Positions 6,561 to 59,792 of a stretch of DNA of 64,000 bases are shown in pieces (the first letter of the stretch is position 1; the number at the start of each line of letters is the position of its first letter). Both the position numbers and the translations under genes were made by a program. The stretch is from Hydrolagus colliei. Lineage: Eukaryota. Where the stretch lies: positions 16,244,001 through 16,308,000 of the forward strand of contig CM068748.1 of assembly GCA_035084275.1 (NCBI GenBank), given 5' to 3'. The notes under the pieces are model-generated. The model saw nothing but the letters and a program-made list of their open reading frames with translations. It did not search any database and was not told where the DNA came from.

Positions 6561-8209
6561 TGTCACATTGGTGCAGTGCTAAAGTTGAAGTGCAAGCAAT
6601 AGTTTGCGAGAGAAAGCAAAGCAAAATTTTGTTCTGCGTCTAACGTATGATGCATTTTATCTGAGATTGCCCACCCTGGCATTAAGGGTAAAAAGTAGAG
6701 AGCTGTTTCATTCCACAGAACTCTCATCTGTTGGCTTGATGAAAATAGAGTAGAAGCAATTGGTATACAGGTACAGTATTTGTTTGAGGGTCATCTTGAT
6801 GTGGTAGCTGACTGATAAAGGTATTTCTATGCAATTCTGTTCTGAAATTTTTTTGCACCCACCAACATAATAATCCCATCCATATATGTTTTACCTCATC
6901 CCACAACCACAATAATTTCAGTGCTTCAGTCACATGCTTAATTCATTGAGTGATCAGAAGACTACAATATTTATTACATGAATGGTTACTGCCAGAATAC
7001 AAGCATTCAAAGTGCAAATGGTATAATTGTGAAAACTGTGGCAGGTGTCTTCTGCCCTCAGATAATGTTTCTGAAAGATTATAATTTTTCCATTGAATCT
7101 CCAGAATATGAACCCCATACACAAGAGTGTAGATCAAATGTCTACATCTTTGGGCCAGGGAAAGCTACGTGAATTGCTGCATACAAGCACGTCATATTGT
7201 ACAATGAATACGCCGAGTGTGGCTTACCTTGTGAAAATTGGTTGCGGGCAACAAGATATCAGTTATAAAATAACCCGCTGTGCATATGCCAGCTCAGAGT
7301 CAACATCACACGAGTCTAGCAAACTTTTCACACAAACAGTAATGAAGATTTTTCTTTACTGTAATTTCTACTGTACAGTTTGGGTTTAGAGAGATTGTAG
7401 TAGTAGAATGTTTTTGTTGACTAGACTATTGCCAATTTATATTTGGCATGATGTCCAATTATCTGCACTATGTGTTTATCCACAATAGGTCTGGTCCCAA
7501 TTAAAGGAAACATTTGGCTGTCCACTCACCAATGAAAAAGAACACCTGGAAATGCATCCTCTCTAGTCCATGGATCATAGCAACTGATGCTCACACCTTT
7601 TGTTTTCATCGCCTTCCATCTGAAAGGACCCTACTGTTCTAATTGAGACATAAACCAATGTCAATATAAAATCTAGTGTTGCCACCTACCATTTTCTTCC
7701 AAACATCATTGCGACATTCTGACAATCAAATCTTTACTTTCTCCTGAAAAATCAATCTTATTTAAATACTGACAAATCAAGGATAACAGCAAGTAAAGAA
7801 CCTTGTAAAAGCTGGGTACATTATAATTGAAATTATGTGAAGGGTAATATAATTACCCTTCACGTTTCTTTAAGTTAACCGTATGTAATTCAAAGTAATT
7901 ATTATGATATTCAATGTCACAGAAGGAAGGTGTTTATAAAAGACAACTAAATTAAGCGATTTGTTATGAAATTGCATAGGGTTAGAAATTCTTCAATCTA
8001 TGTTCACCTTTTCTCTTGCTCGGCATCTAACCTAAGCACTGTGCAGTGCTTCCAGGCCCTATCCTGCAAGAAAGACACTTTAAATTCAAGTTATTGTTGT
8101 AGGGTGATGCAGCATGTTAATGACTTATATCCACATAGAGTAGCAAAGACTTTCATTTCGACCACTGTACAAAGAGGTTCGGGGTCCAAAGATAACATTT
8201 CACAAACAC

Positions 8210-8400
8210 AAACAGAAGTTGCTGGGGAAATTCAGCAGGTCAGGAAGCATCCATGAAGAAAGGAAAAGGAGTCAACGTTTCGGGTCTACAACCCTTCGTC
8301 ATGAGTTCTGATGAAGGGTTGTAGACCCAAAACGTTGACTCCTTTTCCTTTCTCCATGGATGCTGCCTGACCTGCTGAGTTTCCCCAGGAACTTCTGTTT
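8210..8400. mobile_element. Palindromic Penelope-like element terminal fragment with target-site duplication
   Basis: Inverted arms 8210-8301 and 8309-8400 (92 bp each, 6 mismatches). Flanked by 15-bp direct repeats TAAC(A/T)TTTCACAAAC at 8193-8207 and 8404-8418. Confidence 0.8.
8303..8341 (+). ncRNA. Minimal type I hammerhead ribozyme motif, probably inactivated
   Basis: Stem I GAGUU/GACUC, core CUGAUGA, stem II GGGU-UGUAG-ACCC, AAAA in place of GAAA (the opposite arm keeps GAAA), palindromic AACGUU stem III. Confidence 0.6.
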
Positions 8401-8632
8401 TAGTAACTTTTCACAAACCTGGTACACTGCTTCTATCGTTATGATATCTATCACAATGGCTTCCTCTGTTAGTGAAAGTTGTCATCAATTACATTGCTGA
8501 AAGACAAGCATTTCAAAACATAGATGATTTGGACAGTAGTTTTAAACAACAAGTTCCCATCTAATCTCTATTGCCAGCTTCATCCTGCATTGCCAATTTT
8601 ATGTCCAATACTTATGACGACAACAACAACTT

Positions 8633-8770
8633 CATAGAATCATAGAATGTTATGACACAGAAGGAGGCCATTTGGCCCATCTAGTCTGTGCCAGCTCTTT
8701 GACCGAGCAAGTCACTTTTGTTAACCCCAAACACCAGCTTTCTCCCCATAACCCTGCAAACCCGTCTTCC
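8633..8770 (-). mobile_element. CR1 LINE 3' end
   Basis: catagaatcatagaat...cacagaaggaggccatttggcccatc is the reverse complement of a CR1 tail with (attctatg)n repeats. Confidence 0.75.
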
Positions 8771-10774
8771 CCAGAAGACAAAGAAATGCAAATAAACTTG
8801 CATTTATCTAGCACCCTTCACACTAGGTGGCTATATGACAGCCAATCTTAAATCACGATTCCTTAACATCAGAGAGAATTAATCTTATTGCTTGCAGAAG
8901 GTTAGCAGGTCTACAACAGCATTATTATTATTGCAGAAATACAACCAAAATACTGTCTGCAGAACCCATCAGACCATGACGTTGGCTATTTTGCATTCTC
9001 AAGAGAATGTGCAGAATTTGTTTTAACCAATGTGAAAAATTAATAGACTTCACTCCATTCTTTGTTTGACTCCCAATCCACTTGAAATCTAAGTCCTATT
9101 CTTTTGAGCCCCCTGTTCTATGACTAATCAGCACATTATATTTTGTGCACTAGAACCATATGTTATGCAAATTGACATCAATAAGCAGCTTTTCAGCTTT
9201 CTTTGTGTTACAGCCACTTACTGAGAAGTAAATGATCTCACTGCCATTATAGTTAGGAGCAGAAAAGCATTGTTTCCAGCCTGTATCATGCATATCCAGT
9301 ATTTAGGCCAGTAAGGGTGGTGGGGGGGGGAGGAGAAATTCTATTGAGTATTAACAACAGTATTAAGGAGTATTTTATATTTCATATTATGTTTACACAC
9401 AGGCTGACATACTTCAAATCACCTGATAGATTTATGATGATAAACATTCAATGCAGTTGCAGCCTCTTGATTCTCAGTGCCAATAAAGCTTGAATCTGCC
9501 AAAATGCAATGAAATGATTTCTGGCAGTTTTTTTTGCCGGGCTGATGATTATGTCACAAATAAATTTCCATCAACAGAGAGATGATACTGAGCAATGAAA
9601 CACCAATACACAACTCCACAAAGTGTGAAGACACAAGGATTGATCCCTTATGCCTTCATTTGCATATTACTGTATATGTTTTGCAATTCTTTTGGCTGAG
9701 GTATTTGTTCTCCAAAACATAGATTGCATGTGTCCCGAGCATATGTGTACATTTAAAAAAATAAATGATTTTACTCAAGAATATTTAGCAAATAATTTTT
9801 CAACTAAAACTAGGAATGGACTCTCTTCTCTTTGGTATGTTTAGCAGTCTTAAATAAATTGAGACTGGGTAGTACTCAACCAAAATCCAGTTTATCGACC
9901 CAGAGAACAAAACTGGTCATTATTCTACACTAATTGACAATCATTCAGAGACAGCATACAGATGGATAACTGTCATGGGACACTGTAAGAGAGATTCAAG
10001 CTTTGGGTTGGGAAAAGATGGATAAGTGTACATATCTCTGTGGAAGTTGAGCATGGTGTGTAATGGGCAAAGCCAGTTCTTGCAAAACTCATTCAGATTG
10101 CTAAACGCCCATTAGTTCATTGTCCACATTCCACATATCTGTTGTGTATGTATGTATGTGGTCGTGGTGGTGGTGGTCGGGGGGTGGCGGGGGGGGAATT
10201 TTACATCAGCATAAGAAAGTGAAAAAAAACTGACTATTTGATTGGCAACTGTGGAAAATAAAACTGGTGAAGTATAGCAATTTGTTTTTGGAGGTAAGGG
10301 ATAAAGTATACTCTTGAAGCGAACTTACTCCACACAGTTATTAATTTATTATTATATCCAGTTACAATTATTGTTCTGTATTTCAGCTGAGAATCCTTAC
10401 ATGAGTTATCCAAAGCAGGATAGGTATTTCCTAACATTTTGTTTCTCTCTTTGATCATTAAACAGGCAAGTACTATAAAATAATGAATTAATGGTGTTGG
10501 TTTTGCAACCTACTGTATCACGAAAAATTAGTGCTGATGGTTTACAAGGTGTAAACTGTAAAATATCTCATTAGTACAATTTTTTGACGATATGTCAATG
10601 AGTTGAACCTCATGGCTACACTGGAGTTGCTGGCATTGCCTTCAATGTTATCAGACAGTGAAAATCTTGTCAAATTTATCATGTATTCATTTACTGTTAA
10701 ACAGAACATTTCTCAAATTTCTTTCTCTTACTCCCCCCACCCACCTGTGAAAGGGCTATCTTTTCCTGGGGTAC

Positions 10775-26710: not shown

Positions 26711-26965
26711 GGCTTACACATATTTCTGAGTTCGGTGACATCACTCTCAACAGTTCCTTCCATTCAACAGTGAGATTGCTGAATGATAATGTGCAATGTT
26801 TGAATACACCGAATCATTGTGATCCAGAAATCATTAGTCAAATTTGTTAAGCAGTTTTGGAATCTGTAAACGTTTAGTGAATTTTGTTTGCTTTTGCACA
26901 CCAAAATACATAACTTCACCGACATGACACAATTCATAAGCATCAATTCACATACAACATTATCA

Positions 26966-27275
26966 TTAATAATAATAATGCTTGCATTTGATATAGCGCT
27001 TTTTACGCCTTCCAGATGTCTTAAAGTGCTTCACAGAAAATACTGTAAAGTGAATTGAATGTATATTTTGTAGGTGAAACACGGCAGCCAATTGTGCACA
27101 GAAGTGTCCCACAAACAATCATGGATTGAGTGAATAAATCATTTTGTTTTCTGGAGGGGTATTATCAGGCGTGTGGAGTAAGTTAACTTGTTCAAGGTTT
27201 CGCACTGCCTGGAATCGAACCCAGGTCTCTTGCTTACCAGAGGAGTGCTCTAACCACTGAGCTACAGAACTCCTA
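26966..27275 (-). mobile_element. Near full-length tRNA-headed DeuSINE (family A)
   Basis: Minus-strand head GTAGCTCAGTGGTTAGAGCAC..GGGTTCGATTCC carries intact Pol III A and B boxes, followed by the shared body and a (tta)n tail. Confidence 0.88.
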
Positions 27276-36534: not shown

Positions 36535-37245
36535 ACAATAATGATACTGTACTTGCTTTTTATATAGAGCTCTAACACATGGTTGAAATGTCTCAAAGTC
36601 CTTCACAGAACTTTTACTGTAAAGTGTAGGTACTGTGTAATTGTAGGACCTAGCAAACTAGCCAGCTGATTGTTGGCCAAGACCTTTGCACACATTTTGC
36701 GTTGTGATATGGAATGTGTACAGGCAGACAAGACCTCACCTCAATTGAACAATTTATAAAATAAATAAATAATAATCCTTGCATTTGATACAACGCTTTT
36801 CAGGTCTAGGCATCCCAAAGTGCTTCACTGAATATACTGTGATGTGAATTGACTGTTAGTTTGTGGGCAAAGTGCAGCAGCCAATTGAGCACAGCAGTGT
36901 CTTACAAACAGTCGTAGACTGAAGTGACCAATTTATTATTGGGTTTTTTCTTGAGGGATTATTATTGAGGTATGCAGAGTAAGAAAACTTGCCCAAAGTT
37001 TTGCCTTGCTGGGAATCAAACCCAAGTTTCACGCTTGCAAGGTAAGTGTTCTAACCACTGAGCTACAAGAACTCCACCACTAAGCTGCAGGACTCCACAA
37101 TGGGACCTCTGACAATGCAGCATTCCCCAGCATTGAGTTTCAGCCTTAGATTATGAGTAATGAGTTCAAAGTTTTGGTAGGAGGCTAGAACCTGCAACCT
37201 TCTGATTTAGAGGCAAGCATGCTAATAACTGAGCCAAGTTGACTC
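36535..37245 (-). mobile_element. Nested SINEs: family A copy (about 36764-37100) inside an older SacSINE-type element (36535-36755 and 37100-37245)
   Basis: The inner copy has a tRNA head and (tta) tail. The outer pieces (..caggcagacaagacctc..aattgaac / gggacctctgacaatgcagcattccc..aactgagcc) are colinear with the uninterrupted 56952-57355 copy. Confidence 0.8.
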
Positions 37246-41300: not shown

Positions 41301-44300
41301 GCCTTAGATCCCTGCCTTACATCAGCAAGTTCAACATGGTCTGGGATTCTAAACCGCAAACTCCCATCTTCAGCTCCCTCCATACCATTGGGACAGCCCT
41401 GAGGAACTAATATTTATATATAATTGGAATGAGCTCCTATAAACCCAATTCATCAGAGCAATACCAATATGAATAAGTATTACAATAATGCAAGTCATGA
41501 CTGATTTTACAGGTTTCTTATGGCTGGGTCTTACTTCTGATGGGAGTCAATGAGGCTATGCCTATATCAGTATGACTATGCAACAAAATCCTTTATTCAG
41601 TTGTAGTTGCTGCACATTAAAAGGCACAAGGGACGGAATCCCTTACTAAGCACAGCAAATTTATGCGGCACCAACCTTAATGATTTTCTTCATAGATTCA
41701 AGCCTTTGTTATATAATATCCCTCCAATTTTCATGCATATGGATCCAAACAGCCAGTTGTTTTGTCTGGTATCAATCCCAATTACTGAACTGTATGCAGA
41801 CATTATATAGTATCACGTTCCAAAAGTTTTATAACATTTTTATTAGCTGCATGAAACACGTCTGTGGTCGGCATCCTTCGAGTGTATCTAATGGCCTATT
41901 TATACTGCGCTTTTCGCACCAATTTGACATGAAAATGTCAGTGAATCAACACTAAAACACAGCATGAATCTAGTTCAAAGTTCGTGATCTGGAAGCAAAT
42001 TGCACTAACTCCAGAAACACTTTGAAGTGGTTTTGAAGGGAAGCGATTCAGAGATAAATTTCAAAATCATTCAATCTTTGCTCTAGAAATGCCCGCCAAA
42101 ATATTCTTCCTTGCTGTTACATAATTTTATATTGTTTAAGAGACAATCATTTTCCTGGTTCTTCAATTGCAATTTCGGAACCATTTACCAGAGCCTGCAC
42201 TGATTTCTCCTCAGTTTCCATTGAATGCAGTATTGGAACAGAAAAGATGTATATCCATCTTCTTGCTCTCTGGGACTTCATGATTTCATGTTGGTCCAAC
42301 AATATCAATGTTGGACCAACATTGTTGTCACTTGTGTTTCTTATCGAAACACAAGTGACAACAACAACAATAGTTATTTTGTCAAAAGTTTCAAAACTTT
42401 TTGGAAAATCTTTTGATCACTTTTTCTCAGTCTTGTAAATGGCAATACTTGCGGACATCAGCACTTCTCGCATTCAAGAAGTGGTGACAAAGTAAATCCT
42501 GTTACCAATCGGTGTGGCATTCCTGAGCCAACAGTAGCACTAGGTTATATTGTCAAGAACATAGTCTCAAGGGCTGACAGCTGCCTGGAACAGACAATCT
42601 TGTTGCCATGACAACTTTTAGATTATGCAGAAAATCAAGATAAATCAGAATGCTCAGTTCTAAACAAAACTTTAAAAAGGAATACCCCAGGATCGAGTCC
42701 AATTGGAGTCGACTTTAAATCTCTGCCAAGGCTGATGAGTTTCCAGTAAGCATTTGGGATAAAGCAAACAAACAGAAGTTTTATTGAGTGCCTTTGCTTC
42801 ATTCCAGCCTCAGAGACAGCCAGAAAGGAAGACGAAGCTTATTGATACTTAGAAGGTGCTGGTAGGTTTGCACCCCATATGCTAGCTTTACATTGCCACC
42901 ACACCTCCAAATGGGAGCTGGGGCGGATGTTTATAGTGCAGTGACATTTCTTGCATGCGTGTTTACTACTCACGGGGTAAGTGCTTCAAAGCCCCCCGCA
43001 GTAACCATCAGAAACTTCCTTTTTATGATATCCACTACATAAATAACAGTATAAGAAGAGTACAGGAATTGTGTAAACATTTATTACTGCATGGTGCCAA
43101 TCCAGCTAAGAACAACATGGATTGAAACACTGCCCCTATATCTGATAAAAGGCAACACAGATGGTTGTGCCTGATTATTGGCTGGCATAGCTCACAACTG
43201 TTTTTCCAGTCCCACTATGATTATTTGGTTAGCAGAGATCTTGAAAATAAAGTTCTAGTGTTTTTTTTCATGGTGGTGTGAGGGGTGTGATAACATCACA
43301 CAACTTGTGCAAAGCATCAGTACATCTGATCGTGGAGGCAACGAAAGAGCCAACTCTAAAGTAGGTTCTGCCAAGTTTGGCGAGCGGATATCAGGCTATT
43401 TTTCTTTACGAGTTGTTGCTTGCAGAGATTAGTTTGCCTCTGTGGGTGACACGCAATATAAAAGTGGTATAAATCTCTCATTTCCCTGCACTGTGTGTGT
43501 ACCACTACATTTGTCAAGCGTTACAAAATGTTCTTTTCCAAGAAAGCTGCTATATAAATACAAGTTGTTGTTGTAATTTCTGTGAAGACAAAGATAACAT
43601 GATCCTCCCTGCAGCGTACTTATTAAATAAAAACCGTTCTGACATCCAGCAGCCTGAAATGATGATGCTAATAAATCTTCAGTTGAAATAGTGGTGCATG
43701 ACTTTGTTTTAAATAGCGCAACTGATGATGAATAGTTCTAGGTTTTAATAAATATCTTTATTTTAAGTCACACTCACACACTATTTTTTTGCAGCAGATC
43801 TTCAACTGCACATCACTCACTCACCTCCCAGCTCCTGAGGTCCAAGGTTCAACTCATTTTAATCTGAATGAAACTAAGTGACAAAATTGATTGGTTTCTG
43901 TGCAACAAAATAATCATAAAACCTAGAACAGAATTTAAGATTGTTTGTGTTAAGTTGCATTCCTTGGATATAATCAATACTTAAGGAAGCCTGTAATTCT
44001 CATCAACTCTTGATTCACATTGTAAGGTTACGTTCCCTTTCACTGTAATAAGGTACAACTTTGTAATACTGTATTGGTTGGAAGACTTCCATGCCATAGT
44101 AATATCTCAGAAATAACCTTGAATTCTTCACGACTGCTAGGAAGGATTAATTATAATGGCTGTTCATTTAATTTGGAATGATTGCATCATTAAATGGAAA
44201 CAGTGGACTCTAAACTAGGCATAAATATAAATGGAGATATGCTTTTTACAAGGAGTTCTGTGTTGACAGGCACATTTTATGCTTTATATTTTATGCATCT

Positions 44301-47769: not shown

Positions 47770-47896
47770 CATATCATCCTTGGGTTTCACAACTTTCATA
47801 AAGGCACCCCGAGTTGTGGCTTCCTCCCGTTCTTTTCTTGTGACTTTTCTTGCATCTAAAAACTTCAGGTTTGTCAGTTTGTGAAGGATGAAATAC
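47770..47896 (-). CDS. LRMDA: LRMDA internal coding exon (127 nt, LRRcap)
   Basis: Translates to (R)[42 protein letters not shown], embedded in ORF 47674..48111. Acceptor is catcttcttttccag|G, donor is ATG|gtaagg. Phase matches the previous exon (AG+G = Arg). Contains an LRRcap-type YRxFxxxxLxxLxxLD motif across the junction. Confidence 0.95.
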
Positions 47897-53211: not shown

Positions 53212-53476
53212 AATTCAAGCGAGAAACCTGGATTTGATTCCCTTCAGGAGAAACCTTGGGCAAGTTTTCTTACTCCGCGTGCCTGACGATAATCACCCCC
53301 CAAAACTAATAAATTGGTCACTTCAATTTAACTGTGTGGGACACTGCCGTGCGCAATTGATTGCTGTGTTTTGCCCACAAATATACAATCAATTCACTTC
53401 ACAATATATTCTGTGAACCGGTTTGAGACATTTAAAAGACATGAGAAGCGCTACATTAAATGCAAGGATTATTATT
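53212..53476 (+). mobile_element. Family A SINE
   Basis: caagcgagaaacctggatttgattccc..aaaccttgggcaagttttcttactcc..aaatgcaaggattattatt. Confidence 0.85.
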
Positions 53477-53849
53477 TTAAGATAGACAAAATTGATAAGT
53501 GGCGCTTAATAAGGTAGAGGCAGCTCTGTCGTCAAAAAGCACCTAAAAATCATAGGCATCATTGTATGTTAGATATGCACTGTGACAAATGGAGATGAAA
53601 AAAGAAGATACAATTTCCTAAAAAAACCTAAAAGTGAAGCCGCCTACATCCTAGAGGAAAGACTGCAAGGAGGATAGAAAAAACATTAATGATCTTTGAC
53701 AGCTGATGCCAAAGATGGCTCTCATGTGACTGTTATAAACCATGCTCAAATTTATAGTCCTCTCCATGATGAAGAAGCAGAATGTAGTCTAAGTGTCAAA
53801 AGAAAAAGGTTCAGCCAAGAACTAAAAATAAGAAGTTCGGTATCACCTA

Positions 53850-54469: not shown

Positions 54470-54663
54470 CAATAATAATACCTCCAAACAAAACACAATA
54501 ATAATATTGGTCATTTCAATCCAGGATTGATTGTGGGACACTGCTGTGTGCAATTGGCTGCTGCGTTTTGCCCACAAATGTACAGTCAATTCACTTTACA
54601 GTATATTCTGTGAAGTGCTTTGAGACATCTAGAAGATGTGACAAGTGCTATATTAAATGCAAG
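54470..54663 (+). mobile_element. Family A SINE 3' part, preceded by an opposite-strand L2-type tail (54323-54395)
   Basis: ttgtgggacactgctgtgtgcaattggctgctgcgttttgcccacaaatg..gtgctatattaaatgcaag. Confidence 0.8.
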
Positions 54664-56951
54664 CTGCTCATGGAAACCAAATCCCCTGTGCGAATACTAA
54701 TCAAAGTGCACTTGCCATCTTTGAAGACTGGTCGCTGTATTTATGATGGATGGGAACTGAGACTGAATAAGAATTATCCTTCCAAAATGATGAATCCCTA
54801 GGTTTACCTTGATGGAAATAGACCAATTCCACCAATACACTGATTATGATTTTTAAAATCCACCTCTCCCTTCCCAATCCCTGCCCAACCCTCACCTTCC
54901 TCCTTGCTTGCAATCGACTCCATCTTTGTGCTCAGAGACATAATCTTATGCTACACAACAAGTTGCACTTATATACAGCGTCCTCCACTCCGGGTAATGT
55001 CTCAAAGCACTTAAATGCTATTGCCACCTCAGAGACGCAAAAACACGGCTGAGATGAAAATAATGGCCAACAATTTGAAAGCACCTCCTTATCAAACCTG
55101 TCACATCCTTTGGACACGTTACACTTCTCCTCTCAGGATTTTCCAACCTATTTCCTTGAGCACTCTGCTCCATTAATAAATAGAACTTCAATATGCAGCT
55201 TGAATAGATACAAATTGACACGAAAGTCAATGTATAAATGTAAATTTGTATTGTAATTAGCATTATATTGGTGGAGAAAATTGCTCTAGAAAATGAATGA
55301 CAATACTGTACCAGGGGTAAGTATAATACTGTTGTACTAATCAATACTATGAAAAACAATATTTTTGGGGAGGGGAAATGCAGCCAATTACATTCAAGGC
55401 AGAAAACGCATGAGAGGAAACTGAAGAAAATTGAAACAAGTGAAGGGAAGACAACAGACATAATAAACTTTGACAACAAAAATATGGGAATGATGCTGAT
55501 ATGAGGCAAATGTTACTCCAGGAAGGAACACACGGGCTGGTTTGTAGTGGAACTGCCTTCAGGTTGTGTACTGGTATAGGATGTCATGTTATGACTTATT
55601 GCAACGTCAAGCACTCTGAGACGCCAACCGACATGGAGGGCGCTTTATAAATGCAAGTTGTTGTTTGTTGACTTAAAAAGAGGTTGTTCAAGTGATTTTC
55701 ATACGCAGCCGGAATCTATTGAGTCAAAGACAGCAGTAGCAGCGAGGAACATCGTTTTGGGGGCATGTTTGTTAGGAATAATAAACCTATTAATAAGCAG
55801 TGTAACAGGCTGGAAACTGCTGGTCAACAAAGATCTATTTGCAAATGCCTCTGGCTTTGTTGAATTAAGAAATATTATTGTACTTTGAGGAGGTTTATGG
55901 TTTTCACCTGAAGTGAGTTACAGTACAATACCAGATTTAAAACAACCCATACATTGTGTAGTTGAAGCCTGTTAATTGGGACCCCCTGGTGTAAATGAAA
56001 TAGTCCGATTTATCAGATCATTCCCCATCAAGCAAAACCCATCAGTGCTGATTTAAATTGCGAATCAATTAGTGCCTGTGAAAATGTACCCATTAACCAT
56101 TAACAGGCATCAAGTCTAATCATACACTGGGTTTCCCTGTGCTGCTACAGAATTCAGCAATTCTGTTTGGATTGTGTTGCATCACTTTGATCTGCACTGG
56201 CCTGATGTTTTTCACATCATTTTCAAAGACTACAGTGGCTAGGGATAAGACAAAAAATTATTAATTGATGAGAAAATATTTTCCTCTCATTCTCCCCATA
56301 CTGTTGACAAACTCATAGTGATTTTTAAATCCCATTCACGAGGGTTGATGAGAATCAACAGTTTTAAAGGCTCAGTGTTGTCCGAATGTTCTGGCTTCCA
56401 GCCCTGAAATTCATACAAACAGGAACTAGGAAATCTGCCTAAAATGTAAGGACCATTTCCAGGCCCAGAATATGATGGTTACATGGAACATGAAACCAAA
56501 TACTTAAACATCTGCAAAAGAAAAAATAAAGTAGAAATAAATTATGAAATGACTTTTGGGATTGTAACTTGCCCAGGACAGCAGATCGTACCAGTATAGT
56601 GTTCCCTTGTCCAAAATCCAGCTAAAGTACATAAATCAAATCTGAGACATATTTTATAGCACCAAGGCAAAGCTGCATGTATGCCACTATTTGTGCTACG
56701 AATGTAGTTTATTGCCAGTGCAAATGGCAGACAGATCCTTCTTGTGTAGCCAATGATAATAGCCTGTTATGACTTGTACCTGTCAGGACTTGTAGATAAA
56801 GATTCATCTGCTATATGCCATTTCAACAACAACAACAACTTGCACTTACAGTATAAAGCTCCCTCTATGCAGGCTAGAATCTAATAGTGCTTCAAAGAAT
56901 GACTCACCTCCCCTTACACAACAATGTCCTTGACTGCAATTCATTGGATAC

Positions 56952-57923: not shown

Positions 57924-58063
57924 CTGTATCTCTGGTAGTCACTTTCATCGTTGTCCAAACTAACAAGTTCATTGGGACAGGCTTTATTTCCGAGAAGACT
58001 GAGGTACTTAAGGAAAGGCAACACTTCAGCTAAATGATCCAAAAGGGTGTCTAATTCTGTTAT
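57924..58063 (-). CDS. LRMDA: LRMDA internal coding exon (140 nt)
   Basis: Translates to [46 protein letters not shown](R), matching recalled human [49 protein letters not shown] acceptor follows a TCCTTAAC branch site; donor is AG|gttagt. In frame with both neighbouring exons. Confidence 0.95.
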
Positions 58064-59665
58064 GTGTCAAAGGCCATGGGTTAAGGATTCAATCACGTTA
58101 ATGAAAAAGCATTTATAAGGAAGCACTCATAGGTAAAAAATTATATACATCACTGACTGACAATCAAATTTACTGCAGCACTCAAGACATGTCAAAGTTA
58201 TTGTTTAGGGGGCAATTCATAGCAAACACATGTCAGAACGTTGGCATATATTGAAAGAATGTGGCTCTTTTTAGTTTACTTTCTTTCAAAGGTGGTTCAC
58301 TGAAAACATTTAAAACATTGACAAAATGATGGATGTTGTGTGGCTAAATGGTAAGCAATTGTTGAAACTGAAACTTTTCCAACAGGAAACAAACAGCTAC
58401 TTCACACTACATCCATCACTAATACATTCAGTCCATTGTAAAATGAGTCTGCAGTGTCAAACAATAACAGCCTTATTCCCCACAAGAATATAAATGCTGT
58501 CTGATAGCTCTGTGCAGTCATAATCAAGTCGCCAGCAACTTCTGAGCACCAGTGAGTGCTGTTGTCCTTTCACAGACTCTGCCGGCATCATTATTTTTAC
58601 GTACAGCAGTACAGCCTGGGTAATTTAAGAGTTGTACATAAATCATGTTGGTATTTTAATCTCCTCTTTTCTTGTGAAGGTGCAACTCTCTGGTACCTCA
58701 TCGTGTTGCCCATCCCTTACTTGTGATCCTGGACAGTGAATGTCTCCAATAAATTTGACTTTGGATACATCGCGGCCAAGACTGACTTCAGTCCCGGCTT
58801 CAGGTTACTTATGTGTCCTTCCAGCAGGGGCCGCTGGAGAGAGATCATAAGCAGGAAACCTGGTTAGTTTTCCCCATCCCAAGTCCAGGGGCATTTAAGG
58901 ATGACTGTGACATCACTCCTGTTGCCCCATCTGAGAAGAGCTAACTCAGCACAGACTGGGGATTAAACCTGGAGCCTACCTGATTTGTGTGGATTAGTTC
59001 CATACAAAATCATGAAAAAGGTTATTTTATGGGGGGGGGGGGTGGGGGGGGGACACACACACTAGAGACAGAACCATAAACAGCGTGGGTTGTAATAAAG
59101 GCTGCAGTAAATTTGAGAATGGTGTAACAATTACTTACTCTGCTAGAAATAGTTTGAGATTTCACATTTCCTTCTTCCTGTGAGAGCTCCTGAATGGAAG
59201 CTTCATACATACATAAAGGTACTATTTAGTTGAATAAAGCAATTCAGCATCTATCTAAATGTAATAAAAAAACACAAGGAACACCATTAATACGTTATTG
59301 GTGCATAGCCAATTCCTTGCTTACTTTTTCTGTGGGCCTGATTTTATCTCATTCAATAATCATTCCAGCAGAGGGCTCCCTGCCATCCAAGACAATCTCT
59401 TTCCTGCTTTCTTTTTTTAAAAAATAAGCATTTTCAATCTCTACAGTACTTAAAGATTTTTTTTTACACACCGTAACAATCCTGTGTTACAAAGCAAAAG
59501 TGCAACACAAATAGAGACAAAACAGGATTACAAAGCTTATCCCTCCTTTAGTGTGAATTTTTGCAAGTTAGTTTCTAGCGCACCATCTCAATTTGGACAA
59601 AACTGCAAGTGCTTCCCTTTAATTGGGGCACTGTGTAATTTACAACATCACTGTGCAAAGGATAT
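58064..59665 (-). other. LRMDA: U12-type (minor spliceosome) AT-AC intron of LRMDA, 1602 nt
   Basis: 5' site ATATCCTTT (59665-59657), branch site TCCTTAAC (58087-58080), terminal AC (58065-58064). Splicing here yields the continuous peptide NKNQ|ITELD. Confidence 0.93.
58690..58995 (-). mobile_element. Old SINE-like repeat, family B, inside the U12 intron
   Basis: ctggacagtgaatgtc..ccagcagggg..ctgg..gatc..agcaggaaacctgg..agctaactcagcacagactggggattaaacctgg. Confidence 0.65.
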
Positions 59666-59792
59666 TTGATTCTTGTTGATTGTCAGAGTATGAAGGTGTG
59701 GTAACCTGGGCAACTGGAGGTCATTTGTGAGGAGATTGTTGTCCAGAATCAGCTCTTCTAGGCAGCTGAATGCTTCCAGTCCTTCCAATGAC
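59666..59792 (-). CDS. LRMDA: LRMDA internal coding exon (127 nt, LRR region)
   Basis: Manual minus-strand translation gives (R)[42 protein letters not shown], closely matching recalled human LRMDA ([43 protein letters not shown]). Acceptor is ttcccttgttgttgcag|G; the exon ends at U12 donor |ATATCCTTT. Confidence 0.95.

Follow-up and report, generated by a model that had tools for sequence, protein, structure and literature searches.

The window analyzed here, a stretch of 64,000 nucleotides, consists of non-coding animal DNA that contains tRNA-derived repeats and is depleted in CpG (observed/expected, 0.28), and we take its repeats to resemble those of cartilaginous fish. It also carries three minus-strand coding exons of a leucine-rich-repeat protein (presumably LRMDA) at approximately 59665-59792, 57925-58064, and 47770-47896, which lie 39 to 51 kb from the element described below. 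Short motif scans of the window did not recover a last exon of this gene, and the position of the element is likely intronic. The intron between the first two of these exons begins with ATATCCTTT and ends with AC and, judged by these terminal bases, bears the AT-AC signature of the minor spliceosome. Other repeats in the window include a dispersed family, probably a SINE (26961-27273, 36767-37101, 53216-53484, 54470-54664, and others), with tRNA-like heads at 27200-27271 and 37002-37072; an isolated inverted repeat with 12-bp perfect arms at 7837-7863; and an isolated 43-bp palindrome, at 88%, at 42322-42364. A fragment of a second very high-copy repeat, single in the window, occupies 8630-8785, 230 bp from the element, and reaches a depth of 2.2 million in contigs of run X1.

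The element itself is a palindrome of about 200 bp with no further copy inside the window. Its features are as follows.

8193..8207, plus strand: left copy of the probable target-site duplication (15-mer pair test)
8204..8301, minus strand: left arm, a 5′-truncated element end (arm alignment, family contigs)
8302..8303, no strand: inversion junction (depth trough, contig loose ends before 8304)
8303..8341, plus strand: minimal type I hammerhead with G12>A at 8329 (descriptor, published consensus)
8304..8401, plus strand: right arm, a 5′-truncated element end (arm alignment, family contigs)
8402..8403, plus strand: two bases fitting neither family nor duplication
8404..8418, plus strand: right copy of the probable target-site duplication (15-mer pair test)

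The inverted arms, 8210-8301 and 8309-8400, are 92 nt each and differ at six paired positions (8221/8389, 8231/8379, 8245/8365, 8256/8354, 8281/8329, and 8298/8312). A preliminary description of this DNA had reported 92-bp arms with six mismatches and a flanking 15-bp duplication, and its coordinates are right, with 14 of 15 positions identical between the two copies of the direct repeat (8193-8207 and 8404-8418). The repeat also behaves like the target-site duplication that it was taken to be, in that it is the sole pair of 15-mers with at least 14 matches among the 1,339,275 pairs at spacings of 201 to 221 in the window. No empty site is present among the 15 joints listed, of 141, in contigs of the four runs surveyed below.

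Judged against the family sequence, the element extends from about 8204 to 8401. With a start at about 8204, it has its first four bases in common with the left duplication; the last four bases of 8193-8207 also fit the family sequence seen in family loose ends, and this overlap is possibly priming microhomology. The inversion junction sits within a 6-bp palindrome (8299-8304). Each arm is cut off at the ribozyme 5′ edge, whereas the family extends farther upstream. The right arm stops before the family tail, at a point 93 nt past the start of the core, and the 3′ tail is absent from both ends of the window copy.

Two incomplete hammerhead cores

On the plus strand, stem I is formed by 8303-8307 paired with 8337-8341, the core reads CUGAUGA (8308-8314) followed by a bulged A (8315), and stem II is formed by 8316-8320 paired with 8324-8328. 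Positions 8329-8332 read AAAA instead of GAAA, with C-G-U-U next, and the predicted cleavage site is after 8336. The preliminary description had proposed a plus-strand hammerhead in which GAAA has become AAAA, and its core and stems stand, but not its size for stem II, which has five pairs and a 3-nt loop rather than four pairs and a 5-nt loop. Its palindromic stem III, AACGUU, survives in part: a helix III palindrome exists, but the shared part is only ACGU, the outer A and U being core A14 and the cleavage-site base. The motif is the sole match, on both strands of the window, of a minimal-hammerhead descriptor that allows one core mismatch. Apart from G12>A, it fits the minimal type I hammerhead of metazoan Penelope-like elements (PLEs) published in the PMC4209133 supplement, a fit that supports the earlier assignment to the PLE type. 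The Rfam hammerhead models, which the preliminary description had proposed as a check, gave no match in the window either at the gathering score or at E values up to 10; we do not count this blank against the hammerhead, given a mutated core and a missing helix III. A hammerhead-like string at 828-860 (CUGACGA, a short stem, and GAA) fails the descriptor and is either a chance match or very decayed.

The minus-strand arm, which carries the core in the sense of the leucine-rich-repeat gene, begins at core position U4. It retains stem II and GAAAC-GUU, as the preliminary description had said, and it has indeed lost its stem I partner: the 5′ strand of stem I is missing and C3 reads A. Neither core is complete, the plus-strand core having G12>A and the minus-strand core having C3>A and no stem I.

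As an isolated sequence, the plus-strand motif forms the hammerhead stems with a probability of 0.71 to 0.99. Within the whole element their probability is 0.0, at a cost of 47.9 kcal/mol relative to the hairpin, which folds at -163 kcal/mol on either strand. Since the cores lie on opposite strands, no single transcript carries both in sense, and since in addition the hairpin outcompetes the ribozyme fold by about 48 kcal/mol, they cannot act as a dimer in cis. The notion of a meaningful split pair of cores is therefore not upheld, as the two are on opposite strands and each is sequestered by the hairpin. With opposite-strand cores, both broken, and hammerhead stems disfavored in the hairpin, the locus is predicted to lack ribozyme activity.

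A repeat family and its hairpin copies

To survey the family, contigs of four of the 12 listed runs (X1, X6, X7, and X9; organisms A, B, and C and one run without a label) were aligned to positions 7800-8800 at 80% likeness. In X1, summed contig depth, which we use as a sign of abundance and not as a copy number, is 0.6 to 5.7 million over the arms versus 51 in the flanks, and the contrasts between arm and flank in X6, X7, and X9 are similar. The family whose end the arm represents is present in very many copies. Relatives with an intact core, whose existence elsewhere in the genome had been anticipated, do occur in the same organism: G makes up 38%, 39%, 54%, and 59% of the depth at 8329 in the four runs, and loose-end consensuses of family contigs contain the intact GAAACGUU. 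These shares are understated because G-bearing contigs fit the left arm too; at the mirror site, 8281, no variant appears among the 40 of 51 rows listed. The frequency of G at 8329 also supports the earlier view of G12>A as CpG-type decay. The ribozyme variation listed falls at N7 (8312), in the loop (8323), and at CpG sites 8329, 8333, and 8334, and stem II varies in the family by one compatible change, U-G to C-G, at 8320.

The family is one-armed, with its own upstream sequence and tail. In X1, 194 contigs have loose ends before 8304 at which the family extends upstream un-inverted, and 648 contigs extend beyond 8401 into a common tail, which is 35 nt or longer; in X7, 50 contigs enter the tail beyond 8204, at the left end. 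Depth in X1 falls to ~7,400 at 8300-8303, compared with 950,000 at 8290 and 216,000 at 8312, so that depth at the center is about 1% of that a few bases to the left. The preliminary description had seen here a defined palindromic mini-element, and this is not supported, given the un-inverted upstream sequence, the low central depth, and the gaps in every listed relative that spans the center.

Hairpin copies nevertheless recur within the family. Among the 32 pieces listed, of 53,262, 12 cross the center and have 31 or more bases to either side of it, and they come from all four runs. One such piece in X6 has a depth of 182 versus 23.7 for the single-copy flank, or about eightfold. These recurrent copies, together with the ~7,400 depth at the center in X1, are what would be expected if the palindrome were a non-autonomous mini-element copied as a unit by PLE enzymes. 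However, collapsed contigs of palindromes can inflate depth. All 12 spanning pieces need 2 to 13 gap letters (counted without their positions) and 7 to 26 substitutions to align, and the contigs listed also include inverted junctions of other kinds, in which the inserted letters differ. With so varied a set of junctions, and with unrelated families forming the same kind of pair (see below), we regard copying as a unit as improbable.

Some evidence bears on the age of the insertion. Pieces from X6 and X9 join 30 element bases to the unique right flank with three differences and one difference, respectively, which is a strong hint that the right junction is common to two related organisms, with the reservation that 30 element bases fall just short of the 31-base bridging rule. 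Contigs of X6, X7, and X9 leave the left junction uncovered, to which we attach no weight. The arms diverge from one another by 6.5% (6/92), whereas the flanks differ between organisms at 7/483 and 1/310 positions (up to 1.4%). Because the arms diverge more than the flanks, these sequence comparisons fit an insertion older than the lineages concerned.

A junction apparently common to two organisms might also be read as a sign that the host has kept the hairpin as a functional RNA (a microRNA precursor, an editing substrate, or an intronic ribozyme) in the leucine-rich-repeat gene, and the strong folding of either strand and the location downstream of the three minus-strand exons are compatible with such a role. 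In contrast, the arms hold private mutations in excess of the flank differences, the core in the sense of the gene is the one without C3 and stem I, and Rfam microRNA models score far under gathering (e.g., 55 versus 135 bits), in the manner of generic hairpins. We consider retention for a function extremely improbable.

Comparable ends in other organisms

A search for loci resembling the window motif yielded 94 analogue loci, 93 from metagenomes and one from a genome collection, with many duplicates among them. The search pattern was derived from the window motif, and the constancy of stem II and the core among the analogues is thereby built in. The analogues resemble the arm over the ribozyme only (at best 42 nt at 81%), and they are families other than that of the window. 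The core pattern was found in no viral contigs. A 21-nt arm motif was found in no viral and three bacterial contigs, and the three, which are alike over 21 nt only, were dropped.

At 25 of the 94 loci, a same-strand match to a PLE open reading frame (ORF) ends within 1.5 kb upstream of the core, mostly 70 to 180 nt before it. When 13 of the analogue ORFs were compared with Pfam, GIY-YIG was above the cut-off in three and RVT_1 was below the cut-off in two. In the window we found no remnant of a PLE ORF (best tblastn E value, 0.94).

An inverted, head-to-head partner core is present at 24 of the 94 loci. Merging of duplicates by eye left 19 distinct inverted junctions, of which 13 are no more than 30 nt from the core, a count that is biased to short pairs by short contigs and by the 300-base flanks available in 13 loci. 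Sixteen of 17 pairs were measurable (L073 gave no pair in this measurement), and four of these have a 12- to 16-bp flanking repeat together with a 27- to 45-nt extension at one end, compared with 1 of 300 in the null; L093, which has a 12-bp duplication in one of two scorings, was left out of this count. The arm end falls 87 to 96 nt past the core start in 9 of 16 analogue arms, and in the window arm it falls at 93. A broader form of the copied-unit reading would make of these observations a mobile, MITE-like retrotransposed unit, in which hammerhead-edged PLE hairpins of ~200 bp are born at a reverse-transcription stop at the ribozyme 5′ edge that recurs in unrelated animals and are then copied whole by PLE enzymes. 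We hold this, too, to be doubtful, and the variety of junctions with which unrelated families form the same pairs argues against copying as a unit in the window family as well.

The same geometry bears on a DNA-level origin, either as a miniature inverted-repeat DNA transposon or as a fold-back duplication of an older single copy, with the hammerhead incidental. The element is nearly all inverted repeat, and its arms have minority family alleles in common (8268/8342), both of which such an origin would explain. However, what is repeated is the end of a one-armed family that has its own upstream sequence and tail, the 15-bp duplication lies outside both arms and fits one integration event, and the geometry is that of PLE ends in other organisms. 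A DNA-level origin is thus, in our judgment, highly improbable.

Stem I of the analogues shows covariation. In 15 rows hand-picked for diversity, there are 22 two-sided changes compared with 9.9 after shuffling, and none of 500 shuffles was as high. When all 56 distinct flanks are included, shifting the register by 2 bases gives pairing at the first three positions of stem I no less often than the correct alignment, because one AC/GU-rich family dominates, and this control is therefore weak. A variant with G as the cleavage-site base, in which stem I is apparently shifted by two bases, occurs at L007:3812-3858 and at L055.

Published Penelope-like insertions and the proposed origin of the locus

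Minimal type I hammerheads have been described in the pseudo-LTRs of metazoan PLEs, where they are mostly solo or truncated (Cervera and de la Peña 2014, PMC4209133). The window motif is like them in having CUGANGA followed by one unpaired base, a G10.1-C11.1 pair, and a helix I of 4 to 5 bp, and in having a palindromic C-G at 15.2/16.2 without a helix III loop. The same work reported opposite-strand pairs of minimal hammerheads ~100 to 700 bp apart; in contrast, the two cores of the window nearly touch and both are broken. A term search of two supplement files of PMC4209133 found no shark or chimaera row.

Inverted, 5′-truncated copies, 30- to 40-bp tails, and hammerheads are listed as typical PLE features (Craig et al. 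2021, PMC8557442), and rotifer PLEs have inverted pLTRs with 8- to 10-bp duplications, for which fold-back self-priming has been proposed (Arkhipova et al. 2013, PMC3846280). The window element resembles these published insertions in its head-to-head ends, its palindrome at the junction, its flanking duplication, and a family tail that is optional. It differs from them in being ~200 bp long and tailless and in having no ORF between the arms, and its 15-bp duplication is longer than the 8 to 10 bp of the rotifer elements. Animal non-LTR retrozymes are tandem arrays of units arranged head to tail, every one of which carries a complete hammerhead (bioRxiv 10.64898/2026.07.22.740005). They share with the window element a non-coding nature, a type I hammerhead, and derivation from PLE pseudo-LTRs. 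We rejected a retrozyme for the window, which has a single inverted pair, neither member complete, and no tandem units.

Based on the arms, the flanking repeat, the family survey, and the comparisons with other ends, we conclude that the locus is very probably two short, head-to-head, hammerhead-bearing ends of a repeat with very many copies, which is likely a Penelope-like retroelement. The two ends probably arrived in a single insertion and are predicted to be catalytically dead. What lies at the locus is a pair of outward-facing, 5′-truncated ends of one family within a flanking repeat. By every feature tested the window element behaves like a PLE end. Neither the window nor the analogue loci tied an RT/GIY-YIG ORF to the family, whose PLE identity is likely. 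Structures of this kind are known, and the one here is a PLE-type insertion, head to head and decayed.

Each arm crosses the predicted cleavage site and extends into the core; given that site, the template was uncleaved RNA. Under the proposed mechanism, an RT/GIY-YIG protein of an autonomous relative would have cut both target strands about 15 bp apart, and each free 3′ end would have primed reverse transcription at an internal start ~93 nt downstream of the hammerhead. The two cDNAs would have stopped after ~100 nt at the ribozyme 5′ edge and then been joined, repair would have duplicated the 15 bp, and both arms would have drifted later, with CpG loss of G12 among the changes. Such twin priming of both target strands is, by a narrow preference, the route we favor. 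Fold-back self-priming of one cDNA is a possible but unlikely route; either would give the same product.

Twin priming follows work on the Poseidon PLE of Anolis: in vitro, both strands are cut and extended, reverse transcription starts internally, and cleavage is not needed (Frangieh et al. 2024, PMC11167929). As with Poseidon, the element end of the window is ~100 nt downstream of the hammerhead and the arms derive from uncleaved RNA, and priming on two strands would account for the window structure. The differences are that the Poseidon mechanism was established in vitro and in another clade, that joined inverted products are not among its outcomes demonstrated there, and that the window arm has no evident ORF start.

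As a decayed insertion of a described kind, the single locus carries little weight. Its footprint in the genome is clean and fits priming of both strands on uncleaved RNA, for which the evidence to date is in vitro and comes from a single lizard element. Inversion junctions cluster at the ribozyme 5′ edge, both here and in unrelated families, and a genome-wide count of such junctions could be used to ask where PLE template RNAs begin. Neither this host family nor the clustering of junctions at the ribozyme edge was the subject of any paper listed in our search, which had most subscription papers outside its coverage.

Two of the loci met in the analogue search are of note for their coding content. 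The metagenome contig L067 has, at 17-2899, an uninterrupted Penelope-like ORF of 961 residues (RT and a GIY-YIG-like end) that starts at a minimal hammerhead. L097:6001-6967, in a bacterial genome bin, has a Penelope-like endonuclease fragment with a hammerhead and is probably animal DNA binned by mistake.
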